From Verrucomicrobiota bacterium (lineage in GTDB: Bacteria > Verrucomicrobiota > Verrucomicrobiia > Limisphaerales > Palsa-1400), in the NCBI GenBank assembly GCA_049510745.1, contig JBEKYR010000021.1, positions 21,295-85,294 of the forward strand: 64,000 nt of DNA, in the 5' to 3' direction. This document shows, in pieces, positions 33,170 through 59,760 of this stretch; the stretch's first letter is position 1, and the number at the start of each line of letters is the position of its first letter. The translations under genes were made by a program, and so were the position numbers. The notes under the pieces are model-generated. The model was given only the letters and a program-made list of their open reading frames with translations. It was not told the origin of the DNA and did not search any database.

Positions 33170-33216
33170 AGAATAGAACCGAAAAACCGCGCTCGCGCTA
33201 TGGGGTGTTACCCTAC
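33170..33216 (-). promoter_or_regulatory. shared box/-10 promoter 1 (DUF3309-xfp)
   Basis: CTATGGGGTGTTACCCTAC at 33198-33216; minus-strand TATTCT 22 nt away. Confidence 0.75.
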
Positions 33217-33247
33217 CAAACATGATCAATCCAGCCTTGGCGGGCGC

Positions 33248-33847
33248 TCAAGGCAGCGAGGTCTGCGGCGTTTTTGTTTTCGAAAGCAACAGCGCGAACA
33301 CTTCCTGATAAAGGTTCTTCATATCCTCACTCACGCCTGCCAGCGCGCGGGCGCGATCGGGTTGAGACTCGTTTTCGCCGGCGACTTTCGCCAAATGCCA
33401 GGCATAACTCAGCGCCTCGGTCTGGGTCAAAAGCAAGCTCAACTCAAATTCGTCGCCGGTTTGACCCAATAATTCCTTCTTTTCGGTGGAAGCAATCGCT
33501 TCGCGTGTGGCTGCCTCCCCTGGTGGAAGCCGGATGTCGTCCAGATCGATCGAAGGATCATGTCTGGCGAATTCTTCCAACAGCTTTGATCCGGCCCCGG
33601 AAGCAGCGGCAATCTTTTTCACCAGGTTCTTGACATCGGAATGTTCCCGCTTGATGAAGCGCAGGATGCTGACGTCCTTTTGTTCGTCCAGGAGTTGATG
33701 GAGCAAACTGTAGCAATTGTTTCGCGTCGATGGCGCAGCACCGCTCCCGGCCGGAGACCCGCCCTTTGGCGATTGACAGCCGGTCAGCATGCAAGCGACC
33801 GATAACATCACCAAAGGCAAGTTGAAGCAGAAGTGGGCCAAGCTCAC
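33248..33847 (-). CDS. putative lipoprotein, helical (possibly DUF4142/ferritin-like)
   Basis: Lipobox LTGC; GTG start overlaps the upstream TGA (GTGA). Confidence 0.6.
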   Translation of the reverse strand: MSLAHFCFNLPLVMLSVACMLTGCQSPKGGSPAGSGAAPSTRNNCYSLLHQLLDEQKDVSILRFIKREHSDVKNLVKKIAAASGAGSKLLEEFARHDPSIDLDDIRLPPGEAATREAIASTEKKELLGQTGDEFELSLLLTQTEALSYAWHLAKVAGENESQPDRARALAGVSEDMKNLYQEVFALLLSKTKTPQTSLP

Positions 33848-34203
33848 GGATAGCGATCTCCAGTGTCCGCGCTGAGCGCCACTTCGCCCCGGGCCTGCTC
33901 GATGAGCTTGCCCATTTCGAGCGTCACCGGGCGGGCGAACTCGTCCACGCGCGCGCGCATGATGGCGGCGGCCTTTGCGGCCATGACCGCTCGCCCGGCG
34001 AACGTCGTGCGCCGCCATGTCTCAAAGCAGGTCGCGGCGGTTTTAAGCGCCTTCTCAAGCTGCTTGTCGGTGAGTTCCCTGAACGTCTTCAGGATTCTGC
34101 CGTCGTAAGGGTTGACGCTTTGGTAGGCCGGCCGAATCTCCGGGTTCGCAGTTTTTGGCATGGAAATAATCCGGTTTGGCCGGTCAATGATGTGTTTGGC
34201 CAT
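33844..34203 (-). pseudogene. 5' fragment of an aldehyde (succinate-semialdehyde-type) dehydrogenase
   Basis: YQSVNPYDG..., TLEMGKLIEQARGEV then a stop; no catalytic domain. Confidence 0.85.
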
Positions 34204-34252
34204 GATTTTTATCGTTTTTCCGGTTCGGTTTGTGTGCTGGAAGGTGGGTCTT

Positions 34253-34801
34253 TTATTTCGGCGCCTGGGAATGGGCTTCAACAAACCACAGCCATTTATC
34301 TATTCCGCGCGAGATTTCGGTGAACAGATCCGCCGTGTCGGCATCATCCAGTTCGCCTGCTTCATTGATCGTGTGGCGGGCTTCCTCTCCGAAAGTGGAC
34401 AGTGCCTTGGCGACCGCTTCGACATGGGCAAGTCCGTCGCCGATGGTGAGCGGATACTCCTCAAGCTGCGAGCGCGCCGCCGCCACGCGCGCCGTGCCCT
34501 GGGCGATGCCGCCCAGTTGCACGATGCGTTCGGCAATCATGTCCACATACGACTCCACGGCTTCGTCCACCTGGTCAAAGAGTTCGTGCAGGCCGATGAA
34601 GCTCGGGCCTTTCACGTTCCAATGCGCCTGCTTCATCTGCGTTTGCAGATCCACGGCGGACGCCAGCCGCTGGTTCATGAGCGCGTTCAGTTCCGTCCGG
34701 CGCTTTTCTGAGATGTCGTTTTCAGTTTCATATGTTTTGGGCGCTTCCGCGAGGTTGGCGATGGATCTTTTCGTGTTTTGATTCTTAATGGATGTTTTCA
34801 T
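34253..34801 (-). CDS. dps: DNA starvation/stationary-phase protection protein Dps
   Basis: KQAHWNVKGPSFIGLHELFD, DMIAER, DKWLWF. Confidence 0.95.
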   Translation of the reverse strand: MKTSIKNQNTKRSIANLAEAPKTYETENDISEKRRTELNALMNQRLASAVDLQTQMKQAHWNVKGPSFIGLHELFDQVDEAVESYVDMIAERIVQLGGIAQGTARVAAARSQLEEYPLTIGDGLAHVEAVAKALSTFGEEARHTINEAGELDDADTADLFTEISRGIDKWLWFVEAHSQAPK

Positions 34802-34870: not shown

Positions 34871-35923
34871 TCACAACGCCTCTTTCAACGATGCCATATC
34901 GATGACGAAACGGTATTTCACGTCGTTCTTCACCACCCGGTCGTAGGCCTCATTTATTTTCTGGATGGGGATGAGTTCGATGTCGGAAGTGATATTGTGC
35001 TTGCCACAGAAGTCCAGCATCTCCTGGGTTTCCTTGATGCCGCCAATGAGCGAGCCGCTGAAGTTGCGCCGGCCAAAGATGAGGCTGCCGACCTGAATGG
35101 AAAGCGGCTCGGCGGGCACGCCGACTTGCGTGAGGGTGCCGTCGCGTCTCAAGAGCACGAGGCAGGCGTTGATGTCATGTTGCGCAGCCACGGTGTCGAG
35201 GATGAAGTGAAAGCTGTTGAGATGTTTCTTCATCTCGTCTTCGTTCCTGGAATTGACGACTTCATCCGCGCCAAGCCGCAAGGCATCTTTGACTTTGTTT
35301 GGCGAGTGGGTAATGACAACCACGTGCGCGCCGAAAGCCTTCGCCAATTTCACCCCCATGTGCCCCAGTCCGCCCAGGCCCACGACGCCAACTTTCTGGC
35401 CTTTGGCAACTTTGTTGTGCCGCAAAGGGGAATAAGTGGTGATCCCCGCGCACAGGAGCGGGGCGGCGGCGGCGAGATTCAAATTCTTTGGGACGCGCAG
35501 CACAAAGGCTTCATCCACGACGACGCTCTCGGAGTAGCCGCCGTAGGTCATGCCGCCGGTGTGTTTGTCCGGGGCGTTGTAGGTAAAGGTCGTGCCTTTT
35601 TCGCAGAATTGTTCGAGGCCGTCCTTGCAGCTTTCACATGCGCGGCAGGAATCCACCATGCAACCGACGCCGGCGATGTCGCCCTCCTTGAATTTCTTGA
35701 CCTGCGCGCCGGCTTTTACGACGCGTCCGATGATTTCGTGGCCGGGCACGCAAGGGTAGGTGGTGCCATGCCATTCATTGCGGACGATATGCACGTCCGT
35801 GTGACAGACGCCGCAATATAGAATCTGGATTTGCACGTCGCGCGCGCCGGGATCACGGCGTTGAAAGCTGAAGGGCGCCAGCGGCGTCGTGGCGTTTTGT
35901 GCCGCGTAAGAATTAGTTTTCAT
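34871..35923 (-). CDS. Zn-dependent NAD(P) alcohol dehydrogenase (CAD/YahK-like)
   Basis: CGVCHTD, PGHE, C-x2-C-x2-C-x7-C, GLGGLG, YRFVID. Confidence 0.95.
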   Translation of the reverse strand: MKTNSYAAQNATTPLAPFSFQRRDPGARDVQIQILYCGVCHTDVHIVRNEWHGTTYPCVPGHEIIGRVVKAGAQVKKFKEGDIAGVGCMVDSCRACESCKDGLEQFCEKGTTFTYNAPDKHTGGMTYGGYSESVVVDEAFVLRVPKNLNLAAAAPLLCAGITTYSPLRHNKVAKGQKVGVVGLGGLGHMGVKLAKAFGAHVVVITHSPNKVKDALRLGADEVVNSRNEDEMKKHLNSFHFILDTVAAQHDINACLVLLRRDGTLTQVGVPAEPLSIQVGSLIFGRRNFSGSLIGGIKETQEMLDFCGKHNITSDIELIPIQKINEAYDRVVKNDVKYRFVIDMASLKEAL

Positions 35924-36007: not shown

Positions 36008-36052
36008 ACGTTAAGCGACGGGCCGAGACTTTCCTATGGGGTAAAACCCTAC
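36008..36052 (-). promoter_or_regulatory. shared box/-10 promoter 2 (adh-dps unit)
   Basis: CTATGGGGTAAAACCCTAC at 36034-36052; minus-strand TAACGT 20 nt away. Confidence 0.65.
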
Positions 36053-36080: not shown

Positions 36081-37079
36081 TCAACGGCTTTCCCTGCCTT
36101 TGAAAATGTGAAACAGGAAAGCCAAAGAGGGCAGCAGGACAATGGCGCCGGCGCCCAAGGCCAGCACCAGCAAGCGCAAGGTGATTTCAGGGGCGCGAGC
36201 ATTGTTCACGTTGACGTCCGGCGTGATGAGATTGGGATATTGCGCCAGGCACCACCCCACGAGGATGAGCGTGACCTCGCCGATGGCGGCCATTCGCGCC
36301 AGGGCAAACCGCCGCCGCCACAGGGCCGCCAGCGCGACGATGAACATCAAACTCGTCCATGCCAAAAGCAGCGGCGCCCACCAGTGAGTCAATCCGTTAT
36401 ACATTTCCGGCGCGCCTTGTTTGGAGGCGAGAAAAACCACTCCCGCAATGGGCGCCAAAGTCAATCCGGACCAAAGCGCCCGCCGCCGGAAATCATTTTG
36501 CAGATCAGGCTGATCCTTCGTGTCAAGCGTCAGGTAGGTGGCCGCCAGAAACGCAAACAGCCCCAGCGCGAAGACACCGCAAGCCAGCGCGAAGAGCGTC
36601 AACCAGCCCGCGAAGAAACCGGTGACGACCTGGCCATTGACGATGCGAATCTGACCCGTGGTTAACGCGCCGAGTATCATGCCCTGGAAAAACGGAGTAA
36701 AAAAGCTGGCCGTGCCAAACACCAGGCTCCAGCGGCGCTGTGGCGTGTCCGACCGGGAATCGTATCGGCGGAAAATAAAAGCCGAGCCGCGCAGCACGAT
36801 GCCGAGGAGCATCGCGGTGAACGGGATGTTCAGCGCGGTCATCATCCCGGCGAAACCCGTGGGGAAACCGGTGAACAAAAGCACCACCACCAGGATGAGC
36901 CAGACATGGTTGGCCTCCCAGATGGGGCCGATCGCTTCGGCGATGGCTTTCCTTTGCCGCGCGGCGCGCGGCCCGGCCGCCAGCAAATCCCACATGCCGC
37001 CGCCAAAATCCGCGCCGCCCATCAGGGCATACAGGATCAGCGACAGCAAAATGCAAACGGCAACGATGAGTTCAAGCAT
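36081..37079 (-). CDS. cydB: cytochrome bd oxidase subunit II
   Basis: GADFGGG, PIWEANHVWL. Confidence 0.93.
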   Translation of the reverse strand: MLELIVAVCILLSLILYALMGGADFGGGMWDLLAAGPRAARQRKAIAEAIGPIWEANHVWLILVVVLLFTGFPTGFAGMMTALNIPFTAMLLGIVLRGSAFIFRRYDSRSDTPQRRWSLVFGTASFFTPFFQGMILGALTTGQIRIVNGQVVTGFFAGWLTLFALACGVFALGLFAFLAATYLTLDTKDQPDLQNDFRRRALWSGLTLAPIAGVVFLASKQGAPEMYNGLTHWWAPLLLAWTSLMFIVALAALWRRRFALARMAAIGEVTLILVGWCLAQYPNLITPDVNVNNARAPEITLRLLVLALGAGAIVLLPSLAFLFHIFKGRESR

Positions 37080-37083
37080 GGGT

Positions 37084-38403
37084 TCAATTCGGTGACGGCT
37101 CGGAAACCGGCCCGGGCGTCTCCAAAAACTGGCGGCGCAACAGGAAGAAAACGACGGAGGCGAGAAAAACGTACAATCCCGTGAAGACGACAAAGGGCGC
37201 CGCGATCCAAGGCATCGGCGTGACCGCGTCTTCAGTTCGCATCACCCCGTAAATGATCCAAGGCTGGCGCCCGGCTTCGGTCACGACCCAGCCTGCTTCA
37301 ATCGCCACAAACCCCAGCGGCCCGGCTGCAACCAAGGCGCGCAGCAGGCGCGGGTGGCCGGCCAGAGGCCGGCGCTGCCGCCACAGCCAGCCCGACCACA
37401 CGGCCAAAGCCAGCATCGCCATTCCTGCGGCAACCATGAGGTCAAACGACCAATGAACAATCCGCACGTTGGGCCAGTTGTTTTGCGGGAACTCCTCCAA
37501 CCCGGTGACGCTGGCGTTGGGGCTGTCGGCGAGAAGCAGACTCAGGCCGCGCGGGATGCTGATCGCATAGTCGGTCGTGCGCGTCTCATCGTGAGGAATC
37601 CCCCCGATGAGCAAGGGCGCTCCATTTTGCGTCCGGTAATGCGCTTCCATCGCCGCCAGTTTGGCCGGTTGCAACCGGCCCACGACGCGGGCGCTATGGT
37701 CGCCGCTCAGAATCTGCAGCGGGATGCTGAGGCAGGCGACCGCCAGCGCAATGCCCAGCGCGCTGCGATGGAAAAGGCTGTTCGGATTTCGCAGCAGAAA
37801 GAACGCATGGACCGCCGCCACCGCGAAGCCCGTCGCAACGAAAGCCGCCAGCGTCATGTGCAAGACTTCATGGAAGCTGGCCTGATTCACCATGGCCGCG
37901 ATCGGGTCAATATCGGTGATCTGGCCATCAACCATTTTGAAGCCCGCGGGCGAGTTCATCCACGCATTGGCCGTCACGACGAAAATACCGGAAAAGATAC
38001 CGCTGACGGCGACGACCAATCCCGAAAGCCAGTGCAGGAAGGGCGACAGGCGGTTCCAGCCATAGAGATACACGCCGATAAAAATCGCTTCGGTGAAAAA
38101 GGCGAAACCTTCCAGGGAAAATGGCATCCCGATGATCGCTCCGGCCTTTGCCATGAAGCCCGGCCATAACAAACCCAGTTCGAAAGACAGCACGGTGCCG
38201 GACACCGCGCCCACCGCGAAGAGAATAGCTGTGCCGCGCGCCCATCGTTTGCTTAACTCCAGATAAACCGGGCGCCGGGTGCGGAGATACATCCCCTCCG
38301 CAATGGCCATGAACAACGGCATCCCGATGCCCAGGGCCGCGAAAATAATGTGGAAGGCCAGCGACATGGCCATTTGTGAACGAGCAAAGAAAAAATCAGT
38401 CAT
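37084..38403 (-). CDS. cydA: cytochrome bd oxidase subunit I (short Q-loop)
   Basis: AFHIIF, ANAWMNSP, QPAKLAAME, EAGRQPW. Confidence 0.95.
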   Translation of the reverse strand: MTDFFFARSQMAMSLAFHIIFAALGIGMPLFMAIAEGMYLRTRRPVYLELSKRWARGTAILFAVGAVSGTVLSFELGLLWPGFMAKAGAIIGMPFSLEGFAFFTEAIFIGVYLYGWNRLSPFLHWLSGLVVAVSGIFSGIFVVTANAWMNSPAGFKMVDGQITDIDPIAAMVNQASFHEVLHMTLAAFVATGFAVAAVHAFFLLRNPNSLFHRSALGIALAVACLSIPLQILSGDHSARVVGRLQPAKLAAMEAHYRTQNGAPLLIGGIPHDETRTTDYAISIPRGLSLLLADSPNASVTGLEEFPQNNWPNVRIVHWSFDLMVAAGMAMLALAVWSGWLWRQRRPLAGHPRLLRALVAAGPLGFVAIEAGWVVTEAGRQPWIIYGVMRTEDAVTPMPWIAAPFVVFTGLYVFLASVVFFLLRRQFLETPGPVSEPSPN

Positions 38404-38456
38404 GCGATACCGGCCGCAATTCTCAGGCGTTCGGCCTCCCTTTGGTTGTTCGCCAG

Positions 38457-38639
38457 TCAGTTTTCCAAGATCGGCTTTGTCATGGCCTGGTACATCATTT
38501 CCTCGCTGAAGAACGGTGCGCCATACAATTCGTATCCGCCCCTTAGTTTTTCGTTCACTTTCTGCGCCAGCTCGTCGTGGGTGGCGGCATCGGCGTGAAA
38601 AGGCACCGCGACGATGGTGTATTCAATCGGAGTTTTCAT
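38457..38639 (-). CDS. DUF1737-like small protein
   Basis: KVNEKLRGGYELYGAP...YQAM. Confidence 0.75.
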   Translation of the reverse strand: MKTPIEYTIVAVPFHADAATHDELAQKVNEKLRGGYELYGAPFFSEEMMYQAMTKPILEN

Positions 38640-38667
38640 GTTATTTTGAGCATGGGATCCAACAAGA

Positions 38668-41220
38668 TCAACGCTGCCATAGGATTCGCGCGTCTTCCAG
38701 CGGGATCGCGACGCCGTCGCAGCGCGGTATCACTCGCGCCGTGTAGTCCGCCGCCGGGCGGGCGGCGGAAACAGCCGCGCGGTAAACGCAGCCGCCCGAC
38801 GCTCCGGCCTGTTGTCCCGACGAGTCGGGATTCATCTCCTGCCGCACGCGATCGCCGCCCATGACTGCGTCGGCGTAAAGTTCAACTCGCACAGCCTTGG
38901 GGTCGAGGCCATTGAGATAGACCTGGACCTCGAAGACGTGCTGCCCGACGCGAGTCTCCACTTTCATTTCGCCGAAACGCAGCGTGGCCCATTTCTGGTC
39001 CAGAGTGCGCCGCCACTCGATCATTTGCCTGCCGACGGCGCCTTTATTGGCCATGCGCAAATGGTAGGCGGCAGCCACCGGGAGGTAGTGTTGCTCGGTG
39101 TATTCACGCACCGCGCGGTTGGCGGAGAAGCGCGGGGTCAGCCGCGCCATGCTTTCGCGCATCCGCGCCACCCACGCGGTGGAAATGCCCTTGGCGTCGC
39201 GGGCATAAAACTCCGGGATCACCTCTCGTTCGAGCCGCTCGTAAAGCGTGGCGGCTTCGGCCGCGTCCCAGGCCGGATCGTCGCCGTGCTCCTGGCCGTC
39301 CCCCAGCGCCCACCCCACCTCGGGCGTGTAGGCCTCGGCCCACCAGCCGTCCAATTCCGAGAGGTTGATGCCTCCATTGACAAGCACCTTCATGCCGCTG
39401 GTTCCACACGCCTCCCAAGGCCGCCGCGGCGTGTTCAGCCAGACATCGACCCCCTGCACCAAGTGGTCCGTCAGGAGCATATCGTAATCACTGAGAAAGA
39501 TCGCATGAGGACGGACCTTGGGCTGGCGGATGAAGTGTATCCATTCCTGAATCAGGGCCTGTCCCGCCGCGTCTGCGGGATGGGCCTTGCCCGCGATGAC
39601 GAGTTGCACCGGGCGCTGAGGATTGGATAACAGGCGCAGCAGCCGCTCCGGATCGTGCAGCAGCAGGTTCGGCCGTTTGTAGGTGGCGAAGCGGCGCGCA
39701 AAGCCCAGGGTCAACGCGTTGGGATCGAAGAGATGCCTCGCCTCCTCAACCGTCTCGGGCGACGCGCCGGCGGCGGCAAAATGCCGGGCCAGGCGTTGGC
39801 GGGCATAGTCAATCAGCCCCTTGCTGGCGGCCGTGCGGAATTGCCAGAGTCTGGCATCGGAGACGCGGCGGATGTCCTGCTCCAGGCATTCTGTCGTCCC
39901 CAGCCAGCGGTCTTTGCCACAGGCTTCCGTCCAAAGATCGTCGGCCGCCGCCGAGTCCCAGGTCGGCATGTGGACTCCATTGGTCACGTGTCCCACAGGC
40001 ACTTCGTCCGCCGGCCAGTTGGGGAAAAGAGGCTCAAAGAGATGCCGGCTGACTTTCCCATGCAAGCGGCTGACGCCATTGACCGCCCCGCTGCCGCGGA
40101 TGGCCAGATAGGCCATGTTGAAACTCTCCGACGCGTCATTCGGGTTCTGGCGGCCCAGGGCCAGCAGATCATGGAGCGGAATACCGAGCTTCTTCCCGGC
40201 ATACGCCCCCAGGTATTGCTCGATGAGAGCCGGCGCAAAACGATCAAAGCCGGCGGCCACCGCCGTGTGGGTGGTAAAGAGGTTGCCCGCTCGCGTGACG
40301 GCCAGTGCGACTGCGAACGGCTGCGCGTTCTCTTGCATGAAGCTGCGCGCGCGTTCCAACACGGCGAACGCCGCATGTCCTTCGTTCAAGTGACACACTT
40401 CGGGTTGGAGGCCAAGTGCGGCCAGCAGCCGCCATCCGCCGATCCCGAGAAGCAGTTCTTGCTTGAGGCGCAACTCCGGCCCGCCCCCATACAGCTCGCT
40501 GGTGATCCCTCGATGCGCCGGAAAATTCGCCGCGTCATTGCTGTCCAGCAGGTAAAGCTTGACTCGGCCAACCTGGACCTGCCAGGCGCGCAGCCAGACC
40601 GAGTAACCGGGCAAGGCGATCTCCAACCGCAGCCACTCGCCGTTCGGGTGGCGCACCGGCGTGATCGGCAACTGCCCGGGGTCGTTATAGGGGTAAAGGG
40701 CCTCTTGCGCCCCGTCCTTGTCAATCACTTGGCGGAAATAGCCTCGTTGGTAGAGCAGCCCCACGCCGACCACCGGCACGCCCAGGTCGCTGGCGGTTTT
40801 GAGTTGATCGCCGGCCACGTTGCCTAGCCCGCCCGAGTAAATGGGCAGCGCCTCGCTCAACATGAATTCCATGCTGAAATACGCCACGCAGGTCAAAGGA
40901 GCCCGCGGATGATGTTGCTGAAACCACGCCGGCGCCTCCGCCGTTTGACGCTTGGCTCGCAGCAGGTCGTCCACCTTCTTGCGGAAGGCGGAATCGGCCA
41001 GCACGCGCTCGAGTTGATCCCGCGAGACCGTCTGCAAGACAACCCAGGGGTTCTGCGTCAGTTCCCACAACGCGGGATCAAGCTGCCGCCACACTTCGTC
41101 GGCGCAATGGTTCCACGACCAGCGCATATCCAGGGCCAACTCCGCCAGGGAGTCGAATCCCTCGACTTCCGTGGGCAAAAAGCTGTAGATCGGGTTGCTG
41201 ACACGTGTTTGTTTGCTCAT
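38668..41220 (-). CDS. glgP: alpha-glucan phosphorylase
   Basis: YFSMEF, YSGGLG, ARRFATYKR, EACGTSGMK; ATGA overlap with the pgm stop. Confidence 0.95.
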   Translation of the reverse strand: MSKQTRVSNPIYSFLPTEVEGFDSLAELALDMRWSWNHCADEVWRQLDPALWELTQNPWVVLQTVSRDQLERVLADSAFRKKVDDLLRAKRQTAEAPAWFQQHHPRAPLTCVAYFSMEFMLSEALPIYSGGLGNVAGDQLKTASDLGVPVVGVGLLYQRGYFRQVIDKDGAQEALYPYNDPGQLPITPVRHPNGEWLRLEIALPGYSVWLRAWQVQVGRVKLYLLDSNDAANFPAHRGITSELYGGGPELRLKQELLLGIGGWRLLAALGLQPEVCHLNEGHAAFAVLERARSFMQENAQPFAVALAVTRAGNLFTTHTAVAAGFDRFAPALIEQYLGAYAGKKLGIPLHDLLALGRQNPNDASESFNMAYLAIRGSGAVNGVSRLHGKVSRHLFEPLFPNWPADEVPVGHVTNGVHMPTWDSAAADDLWTEACGKDRWLGTTECLEQDIRRVSDARLWQFRTAASKGLIDYARQRLARHFAAAGASPETVEEARHLFDPNALTLGFARRFATYKRPNLLLHDPERLLRLLSNPQRPVQLVIAGKAHPADAAGQALIQEWIHFIRQPKVRPHAIFLSDYDMLLTDHLVQGVDVWLNTPRRPWEACGTSGMKVLVNGGINLSELDGWWAEAYTPEVGWALGDGQEHGDDPAWDAAEAATLYERLEREVIPEFYARDAKGISTAWVARMRESMARLTPRFSANRAVREYTEQHYLPVAAAYHLRMANKGAVGRQMIEWRRTLDQKWATLRFGEMKVETRVGQHVFEVQVYLNGLDPKAVRVELYADAVMGGDRVRQEMNPDSSGQQAGASGGCVYRAAVSAARPAADYTARVIPRCDGVAIPLEDARILWQR

Positions 41221-42911
41221 GGTTTCTCCTTCGGTTTTGGCTCGGAGGGAATCGCTGGCGGCTGCGGCGCCGCCGCCAAAGCATCGCTGACAATCCTTTG
41301 GGCTTCCTCCAGGATGCGGCGCAGATGATCCGCTCCCCGGAAACTCTCCGCATAAATTTTGTAGATATTCTCGGTCCCTGATGGACGCGCCGCGAACCAT
41401 CCGCTCTCGGCCGCCACTTTCAACCCGCCGAGGGGAGCGCCGTTGCCCGGCGCCTGGGTGAGGACGGCTTGGATTTTTTCACCCGCCAACTCGGTGAGCT
41501 TGACCTGCTGCGGTGAGAGTTTCGCCAACAGGGCTTTTTCCTCCGGAGTGGCTGGCGCCTCCACGCGGTCGTAGGCCGGCTCGCCGAACTCCCGCGTAAG
41601 TTCGTGGTAGATTTCGCCGGGATCGCGGCCCATCCGGGCGGTCATCTCCGCCGCCAGCAAAGCCGGGACAATTCCGTCCTTGTCCGTCGTCCAAACGCTG
41701 CCATCCAGGCGGGCGAACGTGGCGCCGGCGCTCTCCTCTCCGACAAAGCCAAGAAAGCCGTCGAGCAATCCTTCGACGAACCACTTGAATCCAACCGGAA
41801 CCTCAAAAAGCTTCCGGCCCAGTTTGGCCGCTATTCGGTCAATCATCTGGCTGCTCACCACCGTCTTGCCGATAGCCGCCGCCTTGGGCCACTTCGGCCT
41901 GTTCAGAAAAAGATAGAAGATCGCCGCGCACAAGTAGTGATTGGGCGGCAGCAATCCTTTGCTTCTGGTCACAATCCCGTGCCGGTCATGGTCCGGGTCG
42001 CAGGCGAAGGAGAGGTCAAAGCGGTCCTTCATCCCGATCAATCGCTCCATCGCATAGGCCGAGGAAGGGTCCATCCGTATCTGACCGTCCCAATCCACAG
42101 TCATAAACCGGAAGGTGGGATCGACCGCTTCGTTGACCACGGCAAGATTCAAACCATAGCGCTCGGCAATTCGTCCCCAATAATGGACGCCGGCGCCTCC
42201 AAGGGGGTCCACGCCCATGCGAAGCGCCGCGCCGCGGATGACCTCCATTTCAACCACGTCCCCCAGATCGGCAATGTAGGCGCTGAGATAGTCGTGCCGG
42301 TGCGTCGTGGAGGCCGTCAGAGCTTTTGCCAGCGCCATCCGCTTGACGCCGCCCAGGCGGGATTCAAGCAGCTCATTGGCCCTCCTTTCGATCCAACCGG
42401 TGGCCACCGTGTCCGCCGGGCCGCCGTTGGGCGGGTTATATTTAAAGCCTCCATCCGGCGGCGGATTATGCGAGGGCGTGACGACAATGCCATCAGCCAG
42501 ACCGCTCTTCCGGCCGCGATTGTAGGTCAGGATCGCATGAGAAATCACCGGGGTCGGCGTGTATTCGTCCCCGGCTGCGATCATCACCTCGACGCCGTTT
42601 GCCGCCAGCACCTCCATCGCGGTGGCGCAGGCCGGGATCGACAGCGCGTGGGTGTCAATTCCCAGAAAGAGCGGGCCATCGGTCCCCTGCCGCTTTCGAT
42701 AGAGGCAGATCGCTTGCGTGATCGCGAGGATGTGGTCTTCATTGAAAGATCGGTTGAAGGCCGTGCCGCGATGTCCGGACGTGCCGAACGCCACCCGCTG
42801 CGCGGGCGCCGCCGGGTCGGGAGACTCGGTGTAATAGGCCGTGATGAGCCTGGGCACGTTGACCAGCATCCCGGGCTCGACTGGCTTTCCTGCGAGAGGA
42901 CTTGTTTTCAT
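41217..42911 (-). CDS. pgm: phosphoglucomutase
   Basis: FGTSGHRG, TPSHNPP, DPDHDR, GEESAG, RPSGTE. Confidence 0.96.
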   Translation of the reverse strand: MKTSPLAGKPVEPGMLVNVPRLITAYYTESPDPAAPAQRVAFGTSGHRGTAFNRSFNEDHILAITQAICLYRKRQGTDGPLFLGIDTHALSIPACATAMEVLAANGVEVMIAAGDEYTPTPVISHAILTYNRGRKSGLADGIVVTPSHNPPPDGGFKYNPPNGGPADTVATGWIERRANELLESRLGGVKRMALAKALTASTTHRHDYLSAYIADLGDVVEMEVIRGAALRMGVDPLGGAGVHYWGRIAERYGLNLAVVNEAVDPTFRFMTVDWDGQIRMDPSSAYAMERLIGMKDRFDLSFACDPDHDRHGIVTRSKGLLPPNHYLCAAIFYLFLNRPKWPKAAAIGKTVVSSQMIDRIAAKLGRKLFEVPVGFKWFVEGLLDGFLGFVGEESAGATFARLDGSVWTTDKDGIVPALLAAEMTARMGRDPGEIYHELTREFGEPAYDRVEAPATPEEKALLAKLSPQQVKLTELAGEKIQAVLTQAPGNGAPLGGLKVAAESGWFAARPSGTENIYKIYAESFRGADHLRRILEEAQRIVSDALAAAPQPPAIPSEPKPKEKP

Positions 42912-48945: not shown

Positions 48946-48952
48946 AACCAAA

Positions 48953-53400: not shown

Positions 53401-56400
53401 GGTCGAGGTGCTCGTGCTGAAGCAATTGGTCGGCGCCAGATAGCTGCCGGTGAAATTGGCGACGGCGCCCGGCTGCAGCCTCAGCGGACCAATGACCGGC
53501 GTGTTGGGAGCCGGCTGGTTGTTGACGACAAACACTTGGGCGAGCGCGATGTTGCCCGAGTTGCTCACCGTGCCGCTGTAAGTCAGCAGCCCGCCGGCCA
53601 TCGTCGGATTGACCGGGCAAACCTGGGTCACCACGATGCCCGGCGTGGTAATGAGCGGGCAGGTGGCCGACGCGGTGTTCGTCACCATGAGGGCAGTGCA
53701 GTTGTCGCTGCCCGTGGCCATCACTGTGCTGCTGACCGTGCATGTGTTGGAGGGCGCGGTGAAACTGGCGGTGAAGTTGGCGGAGGCATTTGGCGCCAGG
53801 GTCAGCGGACCAATGACCGGCGTGTTGGGAACCGGCTGGTCGTTCACGACAAACACATTGTTCAGTGTGACGTTGCCCATATTGCTCACTGTCCCGCTGT
53901 AGGTGATCAAACCGCCCGTGCTGGCGGACACCGCCGGACACGCCAGCGTGACCGCGATGCCCGGGGACGTGGTGACCATGCAGGTGGTCGAAACGGTGTT
54001 CGTGACCGCGCCGAGCGTGCAAGGGTCCGTCCCGGTTCCGCTGAAGGTGGTCGTGACCGAGCAGGCGTTGGCCGGAACGGTGGAAGTGCCGGTGAAGTTG
54101 GTCAAGGCGCCGGGAGCCAGAGCAGCCACCGTCAAGACGGTCGTGTTGGGCGCGGGCTGGCTACTGACCACGACTACATTGGTCAACGTGACGTTGCCGG
54201 TGTTCTGCACCGTGCCGCTATAAGTCAGCGAGCCGCCGGGCAATACCGGGATGGCCGGGCAAACCGCTGTTACCGCGATTTGCGGCGTCGTCAGAATCGG
54301 ACAGGTCGCGCTCATCGTGTTGCTGACGACATCACCGCAGAGACTCTGGCCGGTGGCGGTCGAGGTGCTCGTGGTGGAGCAATTGGTCGGCGCCAGATAG
54401 CTGCCGGTGAAATTGACGGCTTCCCCAGCCGCCAGCCTCAGCGGACCAATGACCGCCGTGTTGGGAACCGGCTGGTTGTTGACGACAAACACTTGGGTAA
54501 GCGCGATGTTGCCCGAGTTGCTCACCGTGCCGCTGTATGTCAGCAGCCCGCCGGGAATCGCCGGATTGACCGGGCAAACCTGGGTGACCACGATGCTCGG
54601 CGTGGTAATGAGCGGGCAGGTGGCCGACGCGGTGTTCGTCACCAGGACCGCAGTGCAGTTGTCGCTGCCCGTGGCTATGACCGTGCTGCTGACCGAGCAG
54701 GAGCCAACCGGCGCCATGAAGCTGGCGGTGAAGTTGACGGAGGCATTCGGCGCCAGGGTCAGCGGACCAATGACCGGCGTGTTGGGAGCCGGCTGGTTGT
54801 TCACGACACGCACATTGTTCAGCGTGACGTTGCCCGAATTGCTGACCGTCCCGGTGTAGGCGATCAAACCGCCCGCGCTGGCGGACACCGGCGGACACGC
54901 CAGCGTGACCGCGATGGCCGGGGCCGTGGTGACCGTGCAGGTGGTCGAAACGGTGTTCGTGACCGCGCTGACCGAACAAGGGTCCGTCCCGGTTCCGCTG
55001 AAGGTGGTCGTCACCGAGCAGGCGTCGGCCGGAACGGTGTAAGTGCCGGTGAAGTTGGCCGACGCGCCGGGGGCCAGAGTAGCCGCCGCGAAGACAATCG
55101 TGTTGGCCGCGGGCCGGCTGCTAACCACGACCACGTTGGTCAACGTGATGTTGCCGGTGTTCTGCACCGTGCCGCTATAAGTGAGCGACCCGCCGGGCAC
55201 TACTTGGGTGGCCGGACAAACCGCCGTGACCGCAATCTGGGGCGTAGTCAGGATGGGACAGGTTGCGCTGGCGAAATTGCTGACGACCACGCCGCAACTG
55301 GTGGTCGCCGTCGCGGTCAGGGTATCGGCCACCGAGCAATTGGTCGGCGCCGTATAAAAACCGCTGAAGTTGGCCGCCGCGCCGGGCGCCAGAGAAGTCA
55401 GTATGAACACCGGCGTATTGGGAACCGGCTGAGTGTTGACCACGACGACGTTGCTCAAGGTCACATTGCCGGTGTTGCTGACGCTGCCTGAAAAAATGAG
55501 TAACTGGCCTGGAGAAACCGGCTGGGCGGGACATGATTTGGTCACTTGGATGCCCGGCGTCAAAACCTCCGAGCAGGTGGTGCTGGCGGAATTTGTCACC
55601 GTCCGGGGATGGGTCGTGTAGAGGTCAGTGCCTTGGGCCACCAGCGTGGCCGTGCTGTTAATGCAAGGATTCAAAGGGACGTAGCTTCCGTTAAACGGGG
55701 CGATCTGGCCTCGGGCGAGATTGGTGATGAACGTCACCGGGATTTGCCCGCCATTGACGAAGTTCAAGACCGTCACGCCCACCAGTGTGTTGTTGCCGCA
55801 ATTGGTCACCGTGCCGTTGAAAGTAATCGCGCCGTTTTCTCCCACGCTGCCAGCGCATTGCACAGCGAGCTGGATGCACGGCTGACTCACTTGCGTGTTC
55901 ACGCCCTGGTTGCCGCCGCCCACGCTGTTGTTGATGTTTTGATGGATGATGCCGATGTCAGCGGCCGTGGCATCCACCGTTTGATCGGGTTGAATGTCTT
56001 GAGCGCGGCAGATGTAAGTGGCGCAGTTGCTATAGAAATCCGATTGTCCGTTGGTCAGCATCGTGCGCACCAACGTGATCGCGTTTGTGACGCCGTCAGG
56101 GGTGACAACCCATGCCTGAATCGACGAAGCGTCACAGACAACCGGCCCGGTGCCCGTTCCGTTGAACACGGTGGCACTGTAATGGAGCGTGTCTCCAATA
56201 TGGACGTCCGCAGCATCCGTATAGAGCAGAATCCCCAAGCCGCTGCCGGTGCATCCCGGCGGACTTTGGTCCGCGCGGGCCGCGGGCGCGCCGAAGAACA
56301 GCAAAAGCAGTCCCGCGAGCAACGCCGCGAAGGTGAAACGGCCAGGCGCCTTGCGCCAGGCGGATAATGTCGCCTCGCTCCGGGTTGAATCAACTGACGG

Positions 56401-56445
56401 TTGAACGATGCCATTCGGCTCGGGATATCGCGTTGAATTATTCAT
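50428..56445 (-). CDS. 2005-aa secreted Cys-rich DUF11-like repeat surface protein with inserted propeller-like domain
   Basis: Signal peptide; about 13 repeats of about 106 aa (I.VT..CP...YSGTVSN.GN..L); C-terminus RFYRV. Confidence 0.85.
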   Translation of the reverse strand: MNNSTRYPEPNGIVQPSVDSTRSEATLSAWRKAPGRFTFAALLAGLLLLFFGAPAARADQSPPGCTGSGLGILLYTDAADVHIGDTLHYSATVFNGTGTGPVVCDASSIQAWVVTPDGVTNAITLVRTMLTNGQSDFYSNCATYICRAQDIQPDQTVDATAADIGIIHQNINNSVGGGNQGVNTQVSQPCIQLAVQCAGSVGENGAITFNGTVTNCGNNTLVGVTVLNFVNGGQIPVTFITNLARGQIAPFNGSYVPLNPCINSTATLVAQGTDLYTTHPRTVTNSASTTCSEVLTPGIQVTKSCPAQPVSPGQLLIFSGSVSNTGNVTLSNVVVVNTQPVPNTPVFILTSLAPGAAANFSGFYTAPTNCSVADTLTATATTSCGVVVSNFASATCPILTTPQIAVTAVCPATQVVPGGSLTYSGTVQNTGNITLTNVVVVSSRPAANTIVFAAATLAPGASANFTGTYTVPADACSVTTTFSGTGTDPCSVSAVTNTVSTTCTVTTAPAIAVTLACPPVSASAGGLIAYTGTVSNSGNVTLNNVRVVNNQPAPNTPVIGPLTLAPNASVNFTASFMAPVGSCSVSSTVIATGSDNCTAVLVTNTASATCPLITTPSIVVTQVCPVNPAIPGGLLTYSGTVSNSGNIALTQVFVVNNQPVPNTAVIGPLRLAAGEAVNFTGSYLAPTNCSTTSTSTATGQSLCGDVVSNTMSATCPILTTPQIAVTAVCPAIPVLPGGSLTYSGTVQNTGNVTLTNVVVVSSQPAPNTTVLTVAALAPGALTNFTGTSTVPANACSVTTTFSGTGTDPCTLGAVTNTVSTTCMVTTSPGIAVTLACPAVSASTGGLITYSGTVSNMGNVTLNNVFVVNDQPVPNTPVIGPLTLAPNASANFTASFTAPSNTCTVSSTVMATGSDNCTALMVTNTASATCPLITTPGIVVTQVCPVNPTMAGGLLTYSGTVSNSGNIALAQVFVVNNQPAPNTPVIGPLRLQPGAVANFTGSYLAPTNCFSTSTSTAVGRSICGDAVSSTASTTCPIVTTPAIAVTQFCPTNSVLPGGILTYSGTVSNAGNVTLTNIVVVDDQPVSNTVILTVAALAPGATTNFTGSYQVPFDCCVVWSTVEASGQGCAGVTVTDSATRTCNVLTLPQIVVTKICAPGILRWGDLMTYSGTVSNAGNVTLIDVTVVNSQFPDSSLLGPIDLAPGETEDYTASYIVPPDFCGADTVTASGLNVCTYLPATSSVTATCPVIIPPPSITVTKNCPLLPTPRGGSYVFTGSVSNSGPITLINVFVVDDQPTNNTPVIGPITLAPGASVNFTNVTNSYIAPYCCCFILDTLTARGQDHCLGSNATDTATAVCPLLTTPGIAVVQNCPLNPIPMGSVYVFNGYVTNTGDAVLTNVFVFGPQGTNTPVLGPIELAPGESESYFGSYTVPFNTCSVSVTGFGQDICGGNVVTNTTSCPIATTPGIVITESCPPGPVSAGSVVVFGGSVSNTGNIPLANILVFSTQRSNNTPVLGPIMLAPGASAPFTGSYIATGGSNPTTNSTIVTNTSGTITTNVVNVIATNVADVITTNVAGTITTNTTSTVTTNAPTPISFGTINSVSEAVVDRFLIGSNFNGLTYAGEDHGYGATEFYSMRKDITGTNFFDTIIASTATTTDRFSATNQNFDALTYAAPDLGYGPLLFYYLRHDNTGVSIFGSITPGGIVGVTTDHFVVGRNFDGLTFTATDVGYGADLFYYVRHDATGLSTFGTINPALPGTVTDRFTIGTNVDALVFTDLTAPGYGADNFYYLRHSASGVSTFGTIFVTGLTTATVTDRFTVGTNATELTFTATDVGFGPNLFYFLRGGGLSVTTNIVTTFTTNTVTTYTTNMVTTYTTNTVTTYTTNTVTTYTTNSVVTFTPTNSVTATGMDICQDRIVAAAANCLGPIGPPQFAPVFGVPTMTNGFFSVSFSGENGISYTVQYKNALNDPAWTDLETVVGTGGNLSITDAVVAQRGSRFYRVILTP
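53344..55260 (-). repeat. 957-bp internal tandem duplication (2 copies of a three-domain unit)
   Basis: Equivalent Cys codons at 55258, 54301 and 53344; near-identical DNA and peptide between the copies. Confidence 0.85.
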
Positions 56446-56546: not shown

Positions 56547-56608
56547 ACAATAAGCAAGAATGCCTCGGCCGCGCTATGGGGTGTTTCCCTATCAGGAATT
56601 CACCCTAT
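56547..56608 (-). promoter_or_regulatory. shared box/-10 promoter 5 (giant surface protein) with a possible second box
   Basis: CTATGGGGTGTTTCCCTAT at 56574-56592; TATTGT 21 nt away; adjacent CAGGAATTCACCCTAT. Confidence 0.75.
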
Positions 56609-56659: not shown

Positions 56660-58648
56660 TCAATTAGAGTTGGGCGGGGACGGCTTCAAACCCGACAGCG
56701 CTCCCAAAATGGTCTTTTGCACCGCCGGATTGTAAAGATTTCCCAAGTGCCCGCCCTGCTCGAAAACCGTCAGTTGTTCCGGGTCAAACATGGCGTGAAG
56801 CCACTCCAAATCCTGGTCCGCCAGCAGAAAATCGTTATGATTGACTATGATGCGGATCTTCGGGTTGGCGCGCAATCCGGCGTCATACGTCCGCAAATCG
56901 CCGGCTTTTTCCAGCCCTTCCGCCGCCGGCGCGGCCATGCCCCGGCCCTGATAATACGGAACCGCAAACTTTTCAAAGTATTCCTGGAAGGAATACTGAA
57001 GAATCTCCTGATACACCGGCTCCCGCCTGAAATTCCAGATCGCGTGGCGCAGGACTCCCTGGTTATTGCGCCGCTGACTGCTGAAAATAATATCCCGCAG
57101 CATGAAGCGAAACGTCAGCCCGATGAGAAACTTGGACTCGATGGCGTTGAAGGGCAGCGAGGTTTGCGGCGTGAGCTTGTTCTTGCTCAAGGCGGCCACC
57201 TTCAAAAAGGTGTTTTCGATGTCGTTGCTCCGTTCCGCGGCCGGCCAGTCCAGGGGCGCCCCGTAAAATTCGTCCAGCTTGGAAACCCCATGCAGCAACC
57301 GCACCGGGGTGTTGATGGCAACGTAGCGGTCAAATTTAATCAACGGCAGCCGATTGGTCGGCTCGGTGGCCGCGACGTATAACGAATCGAATGCGCCCAT
57401 GGAATAACCCATCAACGCCTTCTCGCCCATCCGGCCCGGATACAACGTATCCAGGCGGTGATCCATCTCGGTGAGAGCGACGTGCAAGTCGTGACCATCC
57501 ACCGGCAGATAAGCCGGCATCGCCGCGGTCGAAGCGTGTTCCATGAACTCGGCGTTGAACGGGCTGCTGACGGACACGGCGGAAAAGCCGTTCTTGTAAA
57601 CCAATTCGGCCAGCGCCAGCGAGGTTTCGGCCAGACGATGCGAACCCAGCCCGGGAACGATATAAACCACGGGCGCTTTCCCCGGTTGCAACCAAAACGT
57701 GAACTTTAATCTCCGGCCCGTCGCCGGGAGCAAAACCGACCGGGTCTTGCCGCGTTCTGGAAACGCAGGGTCTTTGTAGGTGAAGAAAACGGATTCGAGG
57801 GTTTCCAGCGAGGCTTCGTCGGGTTTTCCCTTCACCTGGAAATCCGCCACCCGGTTCTCACGCGCGAATGTCCAGGCATACTGAATCTCGGCATACGGGT
57901 CCATTTCGGCCTGGCTGAAGCGCACCGATTCGCGCACCGTGTCGGAGAGATCGTTATACATGACCACGTAGGTGAAATACGTGTAGGGGCCAAGATAGGT
58001 CAGCGGATTGTTCGCGTTGAATTTGTAGGGAGCCACATAGAGCAACGGATTGGCGGCCGTGTCGGCGGCCAGGCCGACGGTGTCCCGTTCATTGCTCGGT
58101 CCAAAAATCGGCAACATCAGGAAGCACTCAGGCTTCCAGCCCCACTGGCCGAAAGTCTGGCCAAAATCCGCGTCCGATTTCGGTATGTTCCATTTGTCCG
58201 CCACGTCCCAGAACCCGGCCACCCCGACGGTCGTATTGCAAACAAACCGGTAGGATTCATCGCGCGCTCCGCTCCACTTTCCCTGGAGCAGGTTGTTGAT
58301 CAATCGTCCCGGATAAGTGAGGTTCCTGCCAAAATTTCCAATTCCGGTTCGGACCGGTTTCACGACCACAAACCGATAAACCCTGCTCGTCGGCTTGATG
58401 ACGTCGGTCATAAGCCCCTTGTTGAAGGCCCACATCACCCGATTGACCGGTTCGATGGGGTCGGGAACGGATTTGGGGAGAACAACGGTCGCCGCTGCCG
58501 CCGGCCGCGTCACGCCAACGGCTGCCTCCTGCCCGCGGGCCAGCGGCCAGAGGCACAACCAGAGGATCACCAGCGCCGCATTTGGAACTCTTCGGCCCGG
58601 TTGGATTTCAAAGTGTTCATGTCTTTGCTTCTGGGTTGAAGTCTTCAA
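56660..58648 (-). CDS. MlaA/VacJ domain fused to an alpha/beta hydrolase
   Basis: DPIEPVNRVMWAFN, DFGQTFGQWG, LPIFGPSNERD; PGLG, GYSMG, NDFLL, GGHLGN. Confidence 0.85.
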   Translation of the reverse strand: MKTSTQKQRHEHFEIQPGRRVPNAALVILWLCLWPLARGQEAAVGVTRPAAAATVVLPKSVPDPIEPVNRVMWAFNKGLMTDVIKPTSRVYRFVVVKPVRTGIGNFGRNLTYPGRLINNLLQGKWSGARDESYRFVCNTTVGVAGFWDVADKWNIPKSDADFGQTFGQWGWKPECFLMLPIFGPSNERDTVGLAADTAANPLLYVAPYKFNANNPLTYLGPYTYFTYVVMYNDLSDTVRESVRFSQAEMDPYAEIQYAWTFARENRVADFQVKGKPDEASLETLESVFFTYKDPAFPERGKTRSVLLPATGRRLKFTFWLQPGKAPVVYIVPGLGSHRLAETSLALAELVYKNGFSAVSVSSPFNAEFMEHASTAAMPAYLPVDGHDLHVALTEMDHRLDTLYPGRMGEKALMGYSMGAFDSLYVAATEPTNRLPLIKFDRYVAINTPVRLLHGVSKLDEFYGAPLDWPAAERSNDIENTFLKVAALSKNKLTPQTSLPFNAIESKFLIGLTFRFMLRDIIFSSQRRNNQGVLRHAIWNFRREPVYQEILQYSFQEYFEKFAVPYYQGRGMAAPAAEGLEKAGDLRTYDAGLRANPKIRIIVNHNDFLLADQDLEWLHAMFDPEQLTVFEQGGHLGNLYNPAVQKTILGALSGLKPSPPNSN

Positions 58649-58803
58649 GAAATCACAACGCGGTGTTCTCCGCGAAATTCAATCAGGCGCGCCTTGACGG
58701 CGAGCGCAATAATTCCTTTGGCCTGGCGTTCGCCCCAGGCGCGGTAACCGCCTGCGACGAAATCACCGAAGGTCATTGGCTTCTTTGGGGGATGCCCTTT
58801 CAT
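58645..58803 (-). CDS. small hypothetical protein (52 aa)
   Basis: Stop overlaps the mlaA-fusion start (TTGA); plausible sequence MTFGDFVAGGYRAWG. Confidence 0.5.
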   Translation of the reverse strand: MKGHPPKKPMTFGDFVAGGYRAWGERQAKGIIALAVKARLIEFRGEHRVVIS

Positions 58804-58835
58804 AGGGAGAGGCGAGGATGAGGTGTCGATTGCGC

Positions 58836-59705
58836 TCATGGTTTGGGCGACGGTTTCTCCGGGGCAAGCGTTTCGGTGGACGCCTGAAGTTCGTCCAGTT
58901 GGATGAGGTCTTTGACCCATAAGGCGGGGGACACGGGGAGCATTTTGCCCTCTTTCCTGGAAAATTGCTCTCCGGCGGCAATGATCGTGATTCCGTTTTC
59001 ACCTATCACTTTAAGCGGGATAACGGAGTCTTTAGCCGCGACGTGAGTTCCGTCGGCTGTGATGATGTACCTGCCGATGCCGCTGCCTTCCACCACGGAG
59101 CGACCGGCCGCATTCCGGATTTCCAATGTGCTGCCGGCCACCGCCGAGCGGACAACGGTGAAGATCCTTCCCGTGCGAAGGTCCAGCAAAGTATGCACGA
59201 CCGGGAGGCCATCTTTCGTGGTTAGAGTCATTTTCTCGAGCCTGATTTCGCTGTTGGCCTGGAGGCGGACGCTGGTTCCAGTGCGCCGGAAAAAGAGATC
59301 TGTCCGCGCCGCTTCGCCGGTGCGGACGATGGCGCCTTGCACAAGAATCTGGCCTTTTTCCAAATTAGTGAACGCGACGCCATCCGCGGAGTACTCGCAC
59401 TTTCCGACGACCGAAGTGGTCATGGCATTGGGTTGATCAGCGATGTCCTGGGACTGGAGCGGCAATGCCGGGGCTGGTTTCACTTCCTGGGCGTCGAGTG
59501 CCGCGGGAAGACAGAACTGCAGCATGACTGCTATTGGGACGGCCACGCGCAGGACGTTTTTCACCGTCTCCAGCAACTTATTGGTGATGAGCAGGCGGAT
59601 GGAGTCCTCGTCATCCGCCACGAGAATGCGGCAGGGCGGACTCGTTTGGCATTGCAGCGGTGCGCTGGCCGGCTCTCCGGCTTGCGTCGTGTTTTTATTT
59701 GTCAT
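58836..59705 (-). CDS. FecR-like beta-domain protein with a vestigial receiver N-terminus
   Basis: GAIVRTG..ARTDL..GTSVRLQANSEIRL..LDLRTGRI; N-terminal RILVADDEDSIR. Confidence 0.75.
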   Translation of the reverse strand: MTNKNTTQAGEPASAPLQCQTSPPCRILVADDEDSIRLLITNKLLETVKNVLRVAVPIAVMLQFCLPAALDAQEVKPAPALPLQSQDIADQPNAMTTSVVGKCEYSADGVAFTNLEKGQILVQGAIVRTGEAARTDLFFRRTGTSVRLQANSEIRLEKMTLTTKDGLPVVHTLLDLRTGRIFTVVRSAVAGSTLEIRNAAGRSVVEGSGIGRYIITADGTHVAAKDSVIPLKVIGENGITIIAAGEQFSRKEGKMLPVSPALWVKDLIQLDELQASTETLAPEKPSPKP

Positions 59706-59713
59706 AACACGAA

Positions 59714-59760
59714 ACTATAAGCCGGAAGATTCGGCGGGCGCTATGGGGTGTTCCCCCCAT
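59714..59760 (-). promoter_or_regulatory. shared box/-10 promoter 6 (FecR-mlaA unit)
   Basis: CTATGGGGTGTTCCCCCCAT at 59741-59760; TATAGT 21 nt away and 8 nt before the ATG. Confidence 0.75.

Follow-up and report, generated by a model that had tools for sequence, protein, structure and literature searches.

Background

The system described here was found in a stretch of 64,000 nucleotides (the window) of a Verrucomicrobiota bacterium (assembly GCA_049510745.1, contig JBEKYR010000021.1; G000:C21, with G000 denoting the source genome), in which six copies of an inverted repeat, from here on called the box, point into minus-strand units. It is linked to a cassette elsewhere in the genome that encodes a histidine kinase, a short histidine-less twin of that kinase and a NarL-family response regulator. 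Among the closest described systems, NarX/NarL of Escherichia coli likewise pairs a HisKA_3 kinase with a receiver-GerE regulator and uses one dimer site just upstream of the -35 position (PMC10853779; here and below, papers are cited for the parts of their text that were available). NarL sites are built 7-2-7, the box reading TGGGGTG-AA-CACCCCA against TAACCAA-TA-AATGGTA at yeaR, and are centred at -43.5 (yeaR) and -44.5 (ogt) (PMC10853779). The present system differs from NarX/NarL in its recognition helix, in a cytoplasmic RsbU-N-like kinase instead of a membrane nitrate sensor, in the histidine-less twin and in its stress-type targets.

DevR/DosR of Mycobacterium tuberculosis is also a NarL-family regulator, autoregulated, with an 18-20 bp palindrome carrying GGG at positions 4-6 and with both protective and fermentative targets. 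In the box, T takes the place of the C that is essential in the Dev half-site (half-sites GGGGTG or AGGGTT), DevR needs tandem boxes (PMC3177182) while most sites here are single, and the present system shows no GAF-haem sensor.

The input domain resembles that of the SigB pathway of Bacillus subtilis, where RsbT binds RsbU-N (PMC9237108, PMC11372060), and RsbU_N-like domains on signalling proteins of Proteobacteria are encoded downstream of stressosome operons (PMC9237108). Unlike in the SigB pathway, the domain is here fused to a histidine kinase and to its twin, the output is an activator instead of a sigma factor, and a search of G000 for stressosome genes found none. The SigB targets overlap with the present ones in the types Dps, catalase and Ohr. 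RpoS and EcfG/PhyR differ in the same way, using alternative sigma factors, whereas the promoters described here have a housekeeping-type -10 element and an upstream inverted repeat.

Literature searches gave no paper on the box (its core searched as text), on a Verrucomicrobial general-stress regulon or on a Kai-kinase cluster in the phylum, in searches with few subscription papers among those covered. This agrees with the first-pass annotation, which knew of no description of the motif, and as far as searched the system is an undescribed, conserved NarL-type regulon with an unusual input and brake.

Results

Six boxes with a common promoter architecture

Read on the minus strand, the box has the pattern TRGGG-N5/6-CCCCATAG and is followed 20-22 nt on by a TAnnnT hexamer. 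The six copies listed by the first-pass annotation were all reproduced with their positions, common orientation and hexamers (Table 1), while 100 shuffles gave a mean of 0.01 matches and never reached six. The box is a 20-bp inverted repeat in fixed orientation, the invariant promoter-side half being common to two classes, ATGGGGTG-AA-CACCCCATAG and GGTAGGGTT-A-CACCCCATAG.

An independent matrix, trained on 192 sites from 79 metagenome loci with the window left out (30 versus 0 against its chance control), recovered the six boxes, three weak opposite-strand matches on or beside boxes 4-6 and a weak extra half-site 15 nt upstream of box 5, the other five of the six promoters having a single box. 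No site of at least 9 bits was found with this matrix before position 33205, in line with the earlier remark that the first 30 kb hold no convincing copy. Rfam gave no match in the window, and none of the four canonical -35/-10 matches in 30300-50000 lies at boxes 1-4. The final codons of the hybrid histidine kinase gene upstream contain box 6, whose closing TAG is the stop codon of that gene. The six boxes are real promoter elements, placed as first reported, of a gene set of about 25 sites, but they are not fully independent of one another, several promoters sharing homologous downstream sequence with other sites.

When sites from other genomes were analysed, TAnnnT was found 19-23 nt downstream of the box in 60 of 84 cases and on the mirror side in 8 of 84. 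An ATG opening a frame of at least 40 codons peaks 33 nt past the box (13 of 79 sites, with 5 at 34 nt and at most 3 elsewhere), suggesting transcripts without a leader that begin some 6 nt past the hexamer. In the window such a start is predicted for the receiver-less LuxR protein behind box 4 (GTG 5 nt past the hexamer) and, exactly or nearly, for the DUF7354 gene behind box 6 (ATG 8 nt past it). TAnnnT also peaks 6 nt before ATG throughout G000 (61 of 2740 long open reading frames (ORFs)), so the hexamer of the box promoters looks like an ordinary -10 element. Counted from leaderless start codons, the centre of the repeat would lie at about -44.5. Of the NarL/FixJ-type activator layout proposed by the first-pass annotation, the site geometry in front of housekeeping-type -10 elements appears to be borne out, and the box is very probably an activator site.

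Distribution in the genome and the phylum

The island of 30 kb to which the box had at first been assigned could not be upheld, since the exact pattern has 17 matches on 8 contigs of G000, the matrix finds 25 physical sites on 11 contigs (27 strand matches versus 0 in the reversed genome) and the box occurs phylum-wide. Outside ORFs of at least 150 amino acids (aa) lie 22 of the 25 sites. Nine site pairs share downstream sequence and one pair shares upstream sequence, the former indicating that some promoters were copied together with the 5' part of their gene. Unrelated genes, for a DUF7354 protein and an ABC transporter, are preceded by copies of the promoter and initial 45 codons of a lone-receiver gene (window 59520-59705, G000 C2:91668 and C2:94671), a case of promoter capture through duplication. 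Judging from a VPDSG-CTERM protein and from the names given to close homologues, G000 probably belongs to Verrucomicrobia subdivision 3.

Scanning of the genome and its relatives showed a conserved and non-random element rather than the random distribution that the first-pass annotation had named as refuting; of the 41 genomes in the relatives set, 26 contain the strict pattern, and the backwards control gave 0-1 matches. A scan of a species collection gave at least 128 stretches with the box, and among the 80 listed, 64 are assigned to Verrucomicrobia or a subgroup, 1 to Victivallales, 4 are unnamed and 11 belong to other taxa, some of them probably mis-binned. Metagenome loci of the kinase, 658 kb in all, contain 250 strand matches versus 0 when reversed. 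Upstream in locus L172 (G016:C5) two 5-nt-class boxes overlap at a 15-bp period. Genome G234, which lacks the regulator, has ten matches of a related but distinct palindrome, clustered like repetitive extragenic palindromic (REP) elements.

The candidate regulator

Eleven LuxR-type helices were found in G000. One of them belongs to a response regulator (C43:42366-43043, PF00072 + PF00196, receiver and GerE) whose best PDB matches are LiaR/VraR-labelled, NarL, DesR and DevR proteins, and which ends an operon flanked by 5 of the 25 box sites. Two or more strict boxes occur in 19 of 23 relatives with an orthologue of at least 64% identity versus 1 of 18 without, a contrast weakened by the cut-off having been set after the identity gap was seen and by the kinship of the genomes, which are not independent. 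In a phylum-wide sample the regulator was found at E<=1e-58 in 33 of 300 genomes, and 10 of the 11 box-rich genomes (at least 3 strict matches) carry it, the eleventh being G234 with its different repeat. Boxes are present in 20 of 27 orthologue loci versus 0 of 11 loci of a 56-59% paralogue.

Among 80 metagenome loci fetched with the kinase, near-duplicates included, the regulator follows within 1.5 kb in 54 of the 56 with room, and in 35 of 47 a box lies 60-200 nt before the twin, hence before the cassette itself, in whose promoter a weaker hexamer (GAnnnT) is equally spaced from the box. The C43 regulator is in our judgement probably the protein that reads the box. NreC was considered for its similar helix; a review describes its site only as a GC-rich palindrome.

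Kinase, twin and sensor domain

The cassette has a conserved core order of short twin, kinase and regulator, the twin preceding the kinase in 48 of 54 metagenome loci. In the kinase, an N-terminal helical domain is followed by a long coiled coil and then by the HisKA_3 and ATPase domains (PF07730 + PF02518), the HisKA_3 histidine being invariant in 20/20. Pfam detected neither GAF, PAS or haem-type domains nor any nitrate-sensing or membrane domain in this protein. A comparison of 180 distinct sensor-bearing frames, of which 170 were readable and 10 unread, showed the histidine in 97/97 long proteins (full kinases) versus 8/73 short twins. The twins lack the ATPase domain (73/73) and keep Gln at H+5 (73/73) and Asp/Asn (70/73), that is D/NxxxQ. 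DxxxQ, the HisKA_3 phosphatase motif, is needed for phosphatase activity of NarX (PMC3510030), and DesK H188V keeps phosphatase activity without the histidine (PMC5231405). These features point, with modest confidence, to the twin as a putative dedicated feedback phosphatase of the regulator.

The sensor domain matches Pfam RsbU_N at E 2e-5 and 24.8 bits, below the 25.5 cut-off, its best PDB sequence match is RsbU-N (1W53, E 0.045), and in the nearest Atlas clusters 12-29% of members carry PF08673. The family is large (2316 clusters at E<=0.001). A phylum search with the sensor alignment gave at least 18 of 301, a lower bound because the kinases of G078, G057, G193 and G206 were missed and later seen by direct comparison. 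The model (predicted local distance difference test score 93) was compared with 48,161 chains, and KaiA structures ranked first and second (Z 9.9, root-mean-square deviation 3.2 over 88; Z 9.5, 3.5 over 96), followed by a designed protein, chorismate mutase and stressosome N-domains, with Z 6.3 to 1W53; for helical bundles the tool requires a Z of about 13, and the lower values here count against the assignment. Foldseek gave nothing at E<=0.001 for the sensor model and DesK-type matches only for the whole kinase. RsbU-N and the KaiA C-terminus are reported to share a fold, in which the RsbT site is equivalent to the KaiC site (PMC11372060). As modelled, the sensor domain of kinase and twin resembles RsbU-N/KaiA. 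STAS matches in G000 number four, in a 668-aa frame, a WecB/TagA-like gene and a lone STAS gene, and the 28 HATPase_c_2 matches are all in frames of at least 255 aa.

Kai genes

In G000 the genes kaiC, two kaiB and a PAS kinase lie between the cassette kinase and the regulator. This order and a KaiC near PDB 8DBA (E 1.5e-194, with a coiled-coil tail and a Ser-Ser site) resemble KaiBC systems without KaiA, and KaiC of Pseudomonas and Legionella has been connected with stress resistance (bioRxiv 10.1101/2022.01.26.477890). Unlike in those systems the module is inserted in, or controlled by, a box cassette, beside a kinase domain of predicted KaiA fold. In G016, G008, G027, G078 and G277 the module is next to the cassette, and in G021, G022 and G003 it follows a box directly. 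A close KaiC is encoded in 14 of 41 genomes, and seven box-rich ones (G001, G002, G006, G011, G014, G023 and G035) are without it; among 38 metagenome loci with room it adjoins the kinase gene in 2. An obligatory input through KaiC was rejected on these two counts. The kaiC-kaiB-kaiB module is an optional cassette member, for which an input role is possible. A complex prediction of two sensor domains with the C-terminal half of KaiC gave no answer (score 0.00) and counts neither way. In L189 (G003:C302) a distant KaiC-like ATPase (26%) lies between twin and kinase and two regulator genes stand in tandem, and in L172 the cassette KaiC is split by a frameshift or an assembly error.

Genes behind the boxes

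Across Verrucomicrobiota the box recurs before genes for Dps, catalase, Ohr/OsmC, ElaB, BON and DUF3309 proteins. When 63 of the 96 candidate frames downstream of boxes in other genomes were run against Pfam, ferritin (2), catalase, OsmC, Hsp70, DUF883, DUF948, DUF3309, DUF2934 (2), CBM48, DUF3300 (2) and receivers (4) were found, and 19 proteins had no family. Further targets in G000, some named by reading of the sequence, are BON, ice-binding-like, lone receiver, P-type ATPase and radical SAM genes. A mix of Dps, ElaB/YqjD, OsmY/BON, DUF3309, DUF2934, catalase and OsmC is typical of RpoS, SigB and EcfG regulons. The first-pass annotation had seen such genes behind the boxes, and this view gained ground, with Dps-like ferritin, DUF883, DUF3309 and PRC-barrel proteins in the window and catalase, OsmC and Hsp70 elsewhere. 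That the output is a general-stress programme seems rather likely from these gene types. Four RNA runs contained contigs of relatives only (5-7% word share), which reveal neither start sites nor expression levels and cannot rank genes.

The features behind the six boxes are given in Table 1. No box matrix match was found in front of the phosphoglucomutase, glucan phosphorylase and cytochrome bd genes; pgm, glgP and cydAB are only distal genes downstream of box 3 and at best putative members of its unit. A terminator scan was at chance level (27 versus 24.2) and gave no usable operon ends.

Table 1. Boxes and neighbouring features of the window (gap, distance from box to -10 hexamer on the minus strand)
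Feature	Position	Strand	Remarks
Box 1, 5-nt class	33198..33215	-	-10 TATTCT at 33170-33175, gap 22 nt
DUF3309 small membrane protein, first gene after box 1	32910..33065	-	Pfam PF11752, E 2.5e-23
Phosphoketolase (xfp), second gene after box 1	30414..32789	-	Pfam XFP_N/XFP/XFP_C
Box 2, 5-nt class	36034..36051	-	-10 TAACGT at 36008-36013, gap 20 nt
Zinc alcohol dehydrogenase, first gene after box 2	34871..35923	-	Pfam ADH_N, ADH_zinc_N
Dps/ferritin-like protein	34253..34801	-	Pfam PF00210, E 2.6e-22; name Dps from reading of the sequence
Truncated aldehyde dehydrogenase	33844..34161	-	Pfam Aldedh, E 7.5e-17; first 100 of 461 profile positions
Putative lipoprotein	33248..33808	-	no Pfam family
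Box 3, 5-nt class	45590..45607	-	-10 TATTCT at 45564-45569, gap 20 nt
PRC-barrel protein, first gene after box 3	44741..45454	-	Pfam PF05239
DUF2934 protein	44459..44716	-	Pfam PF11154; then two small hydrophilic ORFs, 44227-44445 and 43806-44216
Phosphoglucomutase, glucan phosphorylase, DUF1737, cytochrome bd I and II	36081..42911	-	Pfam; co-oriented downstream of box 3
Box 4, 6-nt class	48128..48146	-	-10 TATTCT at 48101-48106, gap 21 nt
Receiver-less LuxR/GerE helix-turn-helix protein	47487..48095	-	Pfam GerE, E 5e-17; heptad-repeat N-terminus
Box 5, 5-nt class	56574..56591	-	-10 TATTGT at 56547-56552, gap 21 nt
2005-aa DUF7507-repeat surface protein, first long gene after box 5	50428..56445	-	Pfam PF24346
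DUF1573 protein, start of the 48263..50344 run behind the surface protein		-	Pfam PF07610
ElaB/YqjD-like DUF883 protein	48953-49258	-	PF05957/PF19029
Holin-like protein, YqjE type	48556-48945	-	Pfam PF07332
Small ORF, end of the 48263..50344 run	48263-48559	-	
Box 6, 6-nt class	59741..59759	-	-10 TATAGT at 59714-59719, gap 21 nt
DUF7354 protein	58836..59705	-	Pfam PF24045; N-terminal part corresponds to a receiver-domain gene fragment; homologous sites on C2
Genes downstream of box 6: conserved small protein of 52 aa (58645-58803), MlaA-domain protein	56660..58803	-	

The truncated aldehyde dehydrogenase is the N-terminal fifth only and overlaps the next gene. A plus-strand gene for an fn3/Ig surface protein (45798-47411), divergent from box 3, breaks the minus-strand run. 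The 52-aa protein has no Pfam family and is encoded by the first gene behind a box in at least five other loci (L070, L081, L083, L108 and L120). Outside the box region, reading of the translations suggested a gene pair resembling AbiEi/AbiEii, with the look of a type IV toxin-antitoxin (5399-7071), and a 969-aa DEAD-box/restriction-type helicase with a DUF559-like nuclease look at its C-terminus (15400-18309).

Discussion

At the DNA level the box, its fixed spacing to the -10 element, its place before stress-type genes and its link to the regulator cassette are established. The reading that appears likely from sequence comparison is that the C43 NarL/FixJ regulator activates sigma-70 box promoters from near -44.5, with a kinase/twin loop and a stress output. 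The cytoplasmic HisKA_3 kinase would take its signal through the RsbU-N/KaiA-like N-terminal bundle, probably by binding a partner protein, and would phosphorylate the regulator, which would dimerise on the box and recruit RNA polymerase (sigma-70) to promoters with a -10 and no -35 element. The cassette's own box would raise cassette expression in a positive loop, and the twin, as first cassette gene with D/NxxxQ kept, would dephosphorylate the regulator and switch the response off. The output would be a general-stress or stationary-phase programme of Dps, catalase, Ohr/OsmC, ElaB, BON and DUF3309 proteins with glycogen and fermentation enzymes, and would include second-tier regulators such as the receiver-less LuxR protein of the window.

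Several observations weigh against this reading. Genome G012 (97% complete) has an intact cassette with a 78% identical regulator but 0 strict boxes and 1 relaxed match, G031 carries the regulator with 0 strict and 0 relaxed matches, and 23 of the 33 regulator-bearing genomes of the phylum sample have fewer than 3 strict boxes, many low-count carriers having degenerate boxes beside the regulator gene. Conversely, G019 (78% complete) has 3 boxes and no orthologue, and the 56-59% paralogue clade shares the KTVEKHR helix, yet no boxes lie nearby. The 5-nt and 6-nt spacer classes differ in their left half, for which no explanation is offered, and several G000 promoters are duplicates of one another. 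Many targets, among them surface proteins, ice-binding-like proteins, radical SAM proteins and kinases, are not stress genes, and on the input side neither rsbR, rsbS or rsbT nor a stressosome was found in G000 (94% complete).

With the same box and regulator, the signal might instead be low oxygen or dormancy, as for DosR. Cytochrome bd, phosphoketolase, alcohol dehydrogenase, phosphoglucomutase and glucan phosphorylase are encoded in or downstream of box units, and the position of the GGG core is common to the box and the DevR half-site G4G5G6A7C8T9 (PMC3177182), but the kinase has no domain of GAF, PAS or haem type, cydAB has no box of its own and the cross-genome targets include Dps, catalase, OsmC, Hsp70, DUF883 and DUF948. 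Such a signal is considered rather doubtful. A still more tentative idea, for which the odds seem poor, is that the sensor domain reads the state of the KaiC hexamer, as a timer or an ATP/ADP gauge, and feeds one NarL-type activator in a sigma-independent stress response with a histidine-less phosphatase as brake. Such a kinase, if real, would bring both uses of a rare fold, in the clock and in the stress pathway, together in one circuit.

Another reader of the box, be it the receiver-less LuxR protein, a heterodimer or an unrelated factor, would make the C43 cassette a mere target. The LuxR protein is encoded behind box 4 and has the C43 regulator as its closest relative in the genome (E 6.5e-15), the two box classes could mean two dimer species, and G012 and G031 have the regulator without boxes. 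Throughout the phylum, however, the C43-type regulator has both box classes beside it, the LuxR protein has a full-length copy in just one other of the fetched loci (L177), and its recognition helix is KTVEYHRMK as against KTVEKHREH, so that another reader is quite improbable. With a helix that differs at what we take to be base-contact positions, the LuxR protein probably acts in a second tier of regulation, under a box promoter. In G017 a full-length copy with 66% identity stands behind a box. The leaderless heptad-repeat coiled-coil module of the window protein, without a Pfam family (window 47750-48095; L011:16885-17200), is usually found right behind a box and fused to a LuxR helix, PAS kinases or other outputs; it is also present on a C43 kinase and may supply constitutive dimerisation.

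That the box is an upstream element of an alternative sigma factor is very improbable. Its invariant promoter-side half and fixed orientation would suit this, as would a second RpoD-like gene on G000 C8, but the box is an inverted repeat of 20 bp, and its conserved run ends 19-23 nt before the -10 element, upstream of the place of a sigma-70-family -35 element, which falls a spacer of 16-18 nt from the -10. Furthermore, both RpoD-like proteins keep the same region 4.2 helix, in a survey limited to RpoD-like sigma factors. The second RpoD-like gene (C8:108917-110770) has a weak box-like sequence near its start, 15 bits in one matrix and absent in the other. That the box is a mobile or REP-like repeat, or marks where a duplicated cassette ends, and has no regulatory role is hardly credible: copied promoters with 5' gene ends in nine site pairs and the similar-looking but distinct repeat family of G234 recall such elements, but upstream flanks are unrelated in all but one pair, the spacing to -10 elements and start codons is fixed in dozens of genomes, and the sites lie mostly outside long ORFs, with no Rfam family matching in the window.

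Soil, peat and fresh water are rich in Verrucomicrobiota, for which the literature searches gave no described global stress regulator. Regulation by the C43 protein through the box would be a general-stress-type programme run by an activator and not by an alternative sigma factor, and the histidine-less twin would be a natural dedicated HisKA_3 phosphatase. It also raises the question of what binds an RsbU-N/KaiA-type domain in a cell without a detectable stressosome. The box gives a testable set of regulator, site and target list as well as a stress-state marker for metatranscriptomes, and the promoter-plus-N-terminus modules copied before new genes show how the regulon grows.

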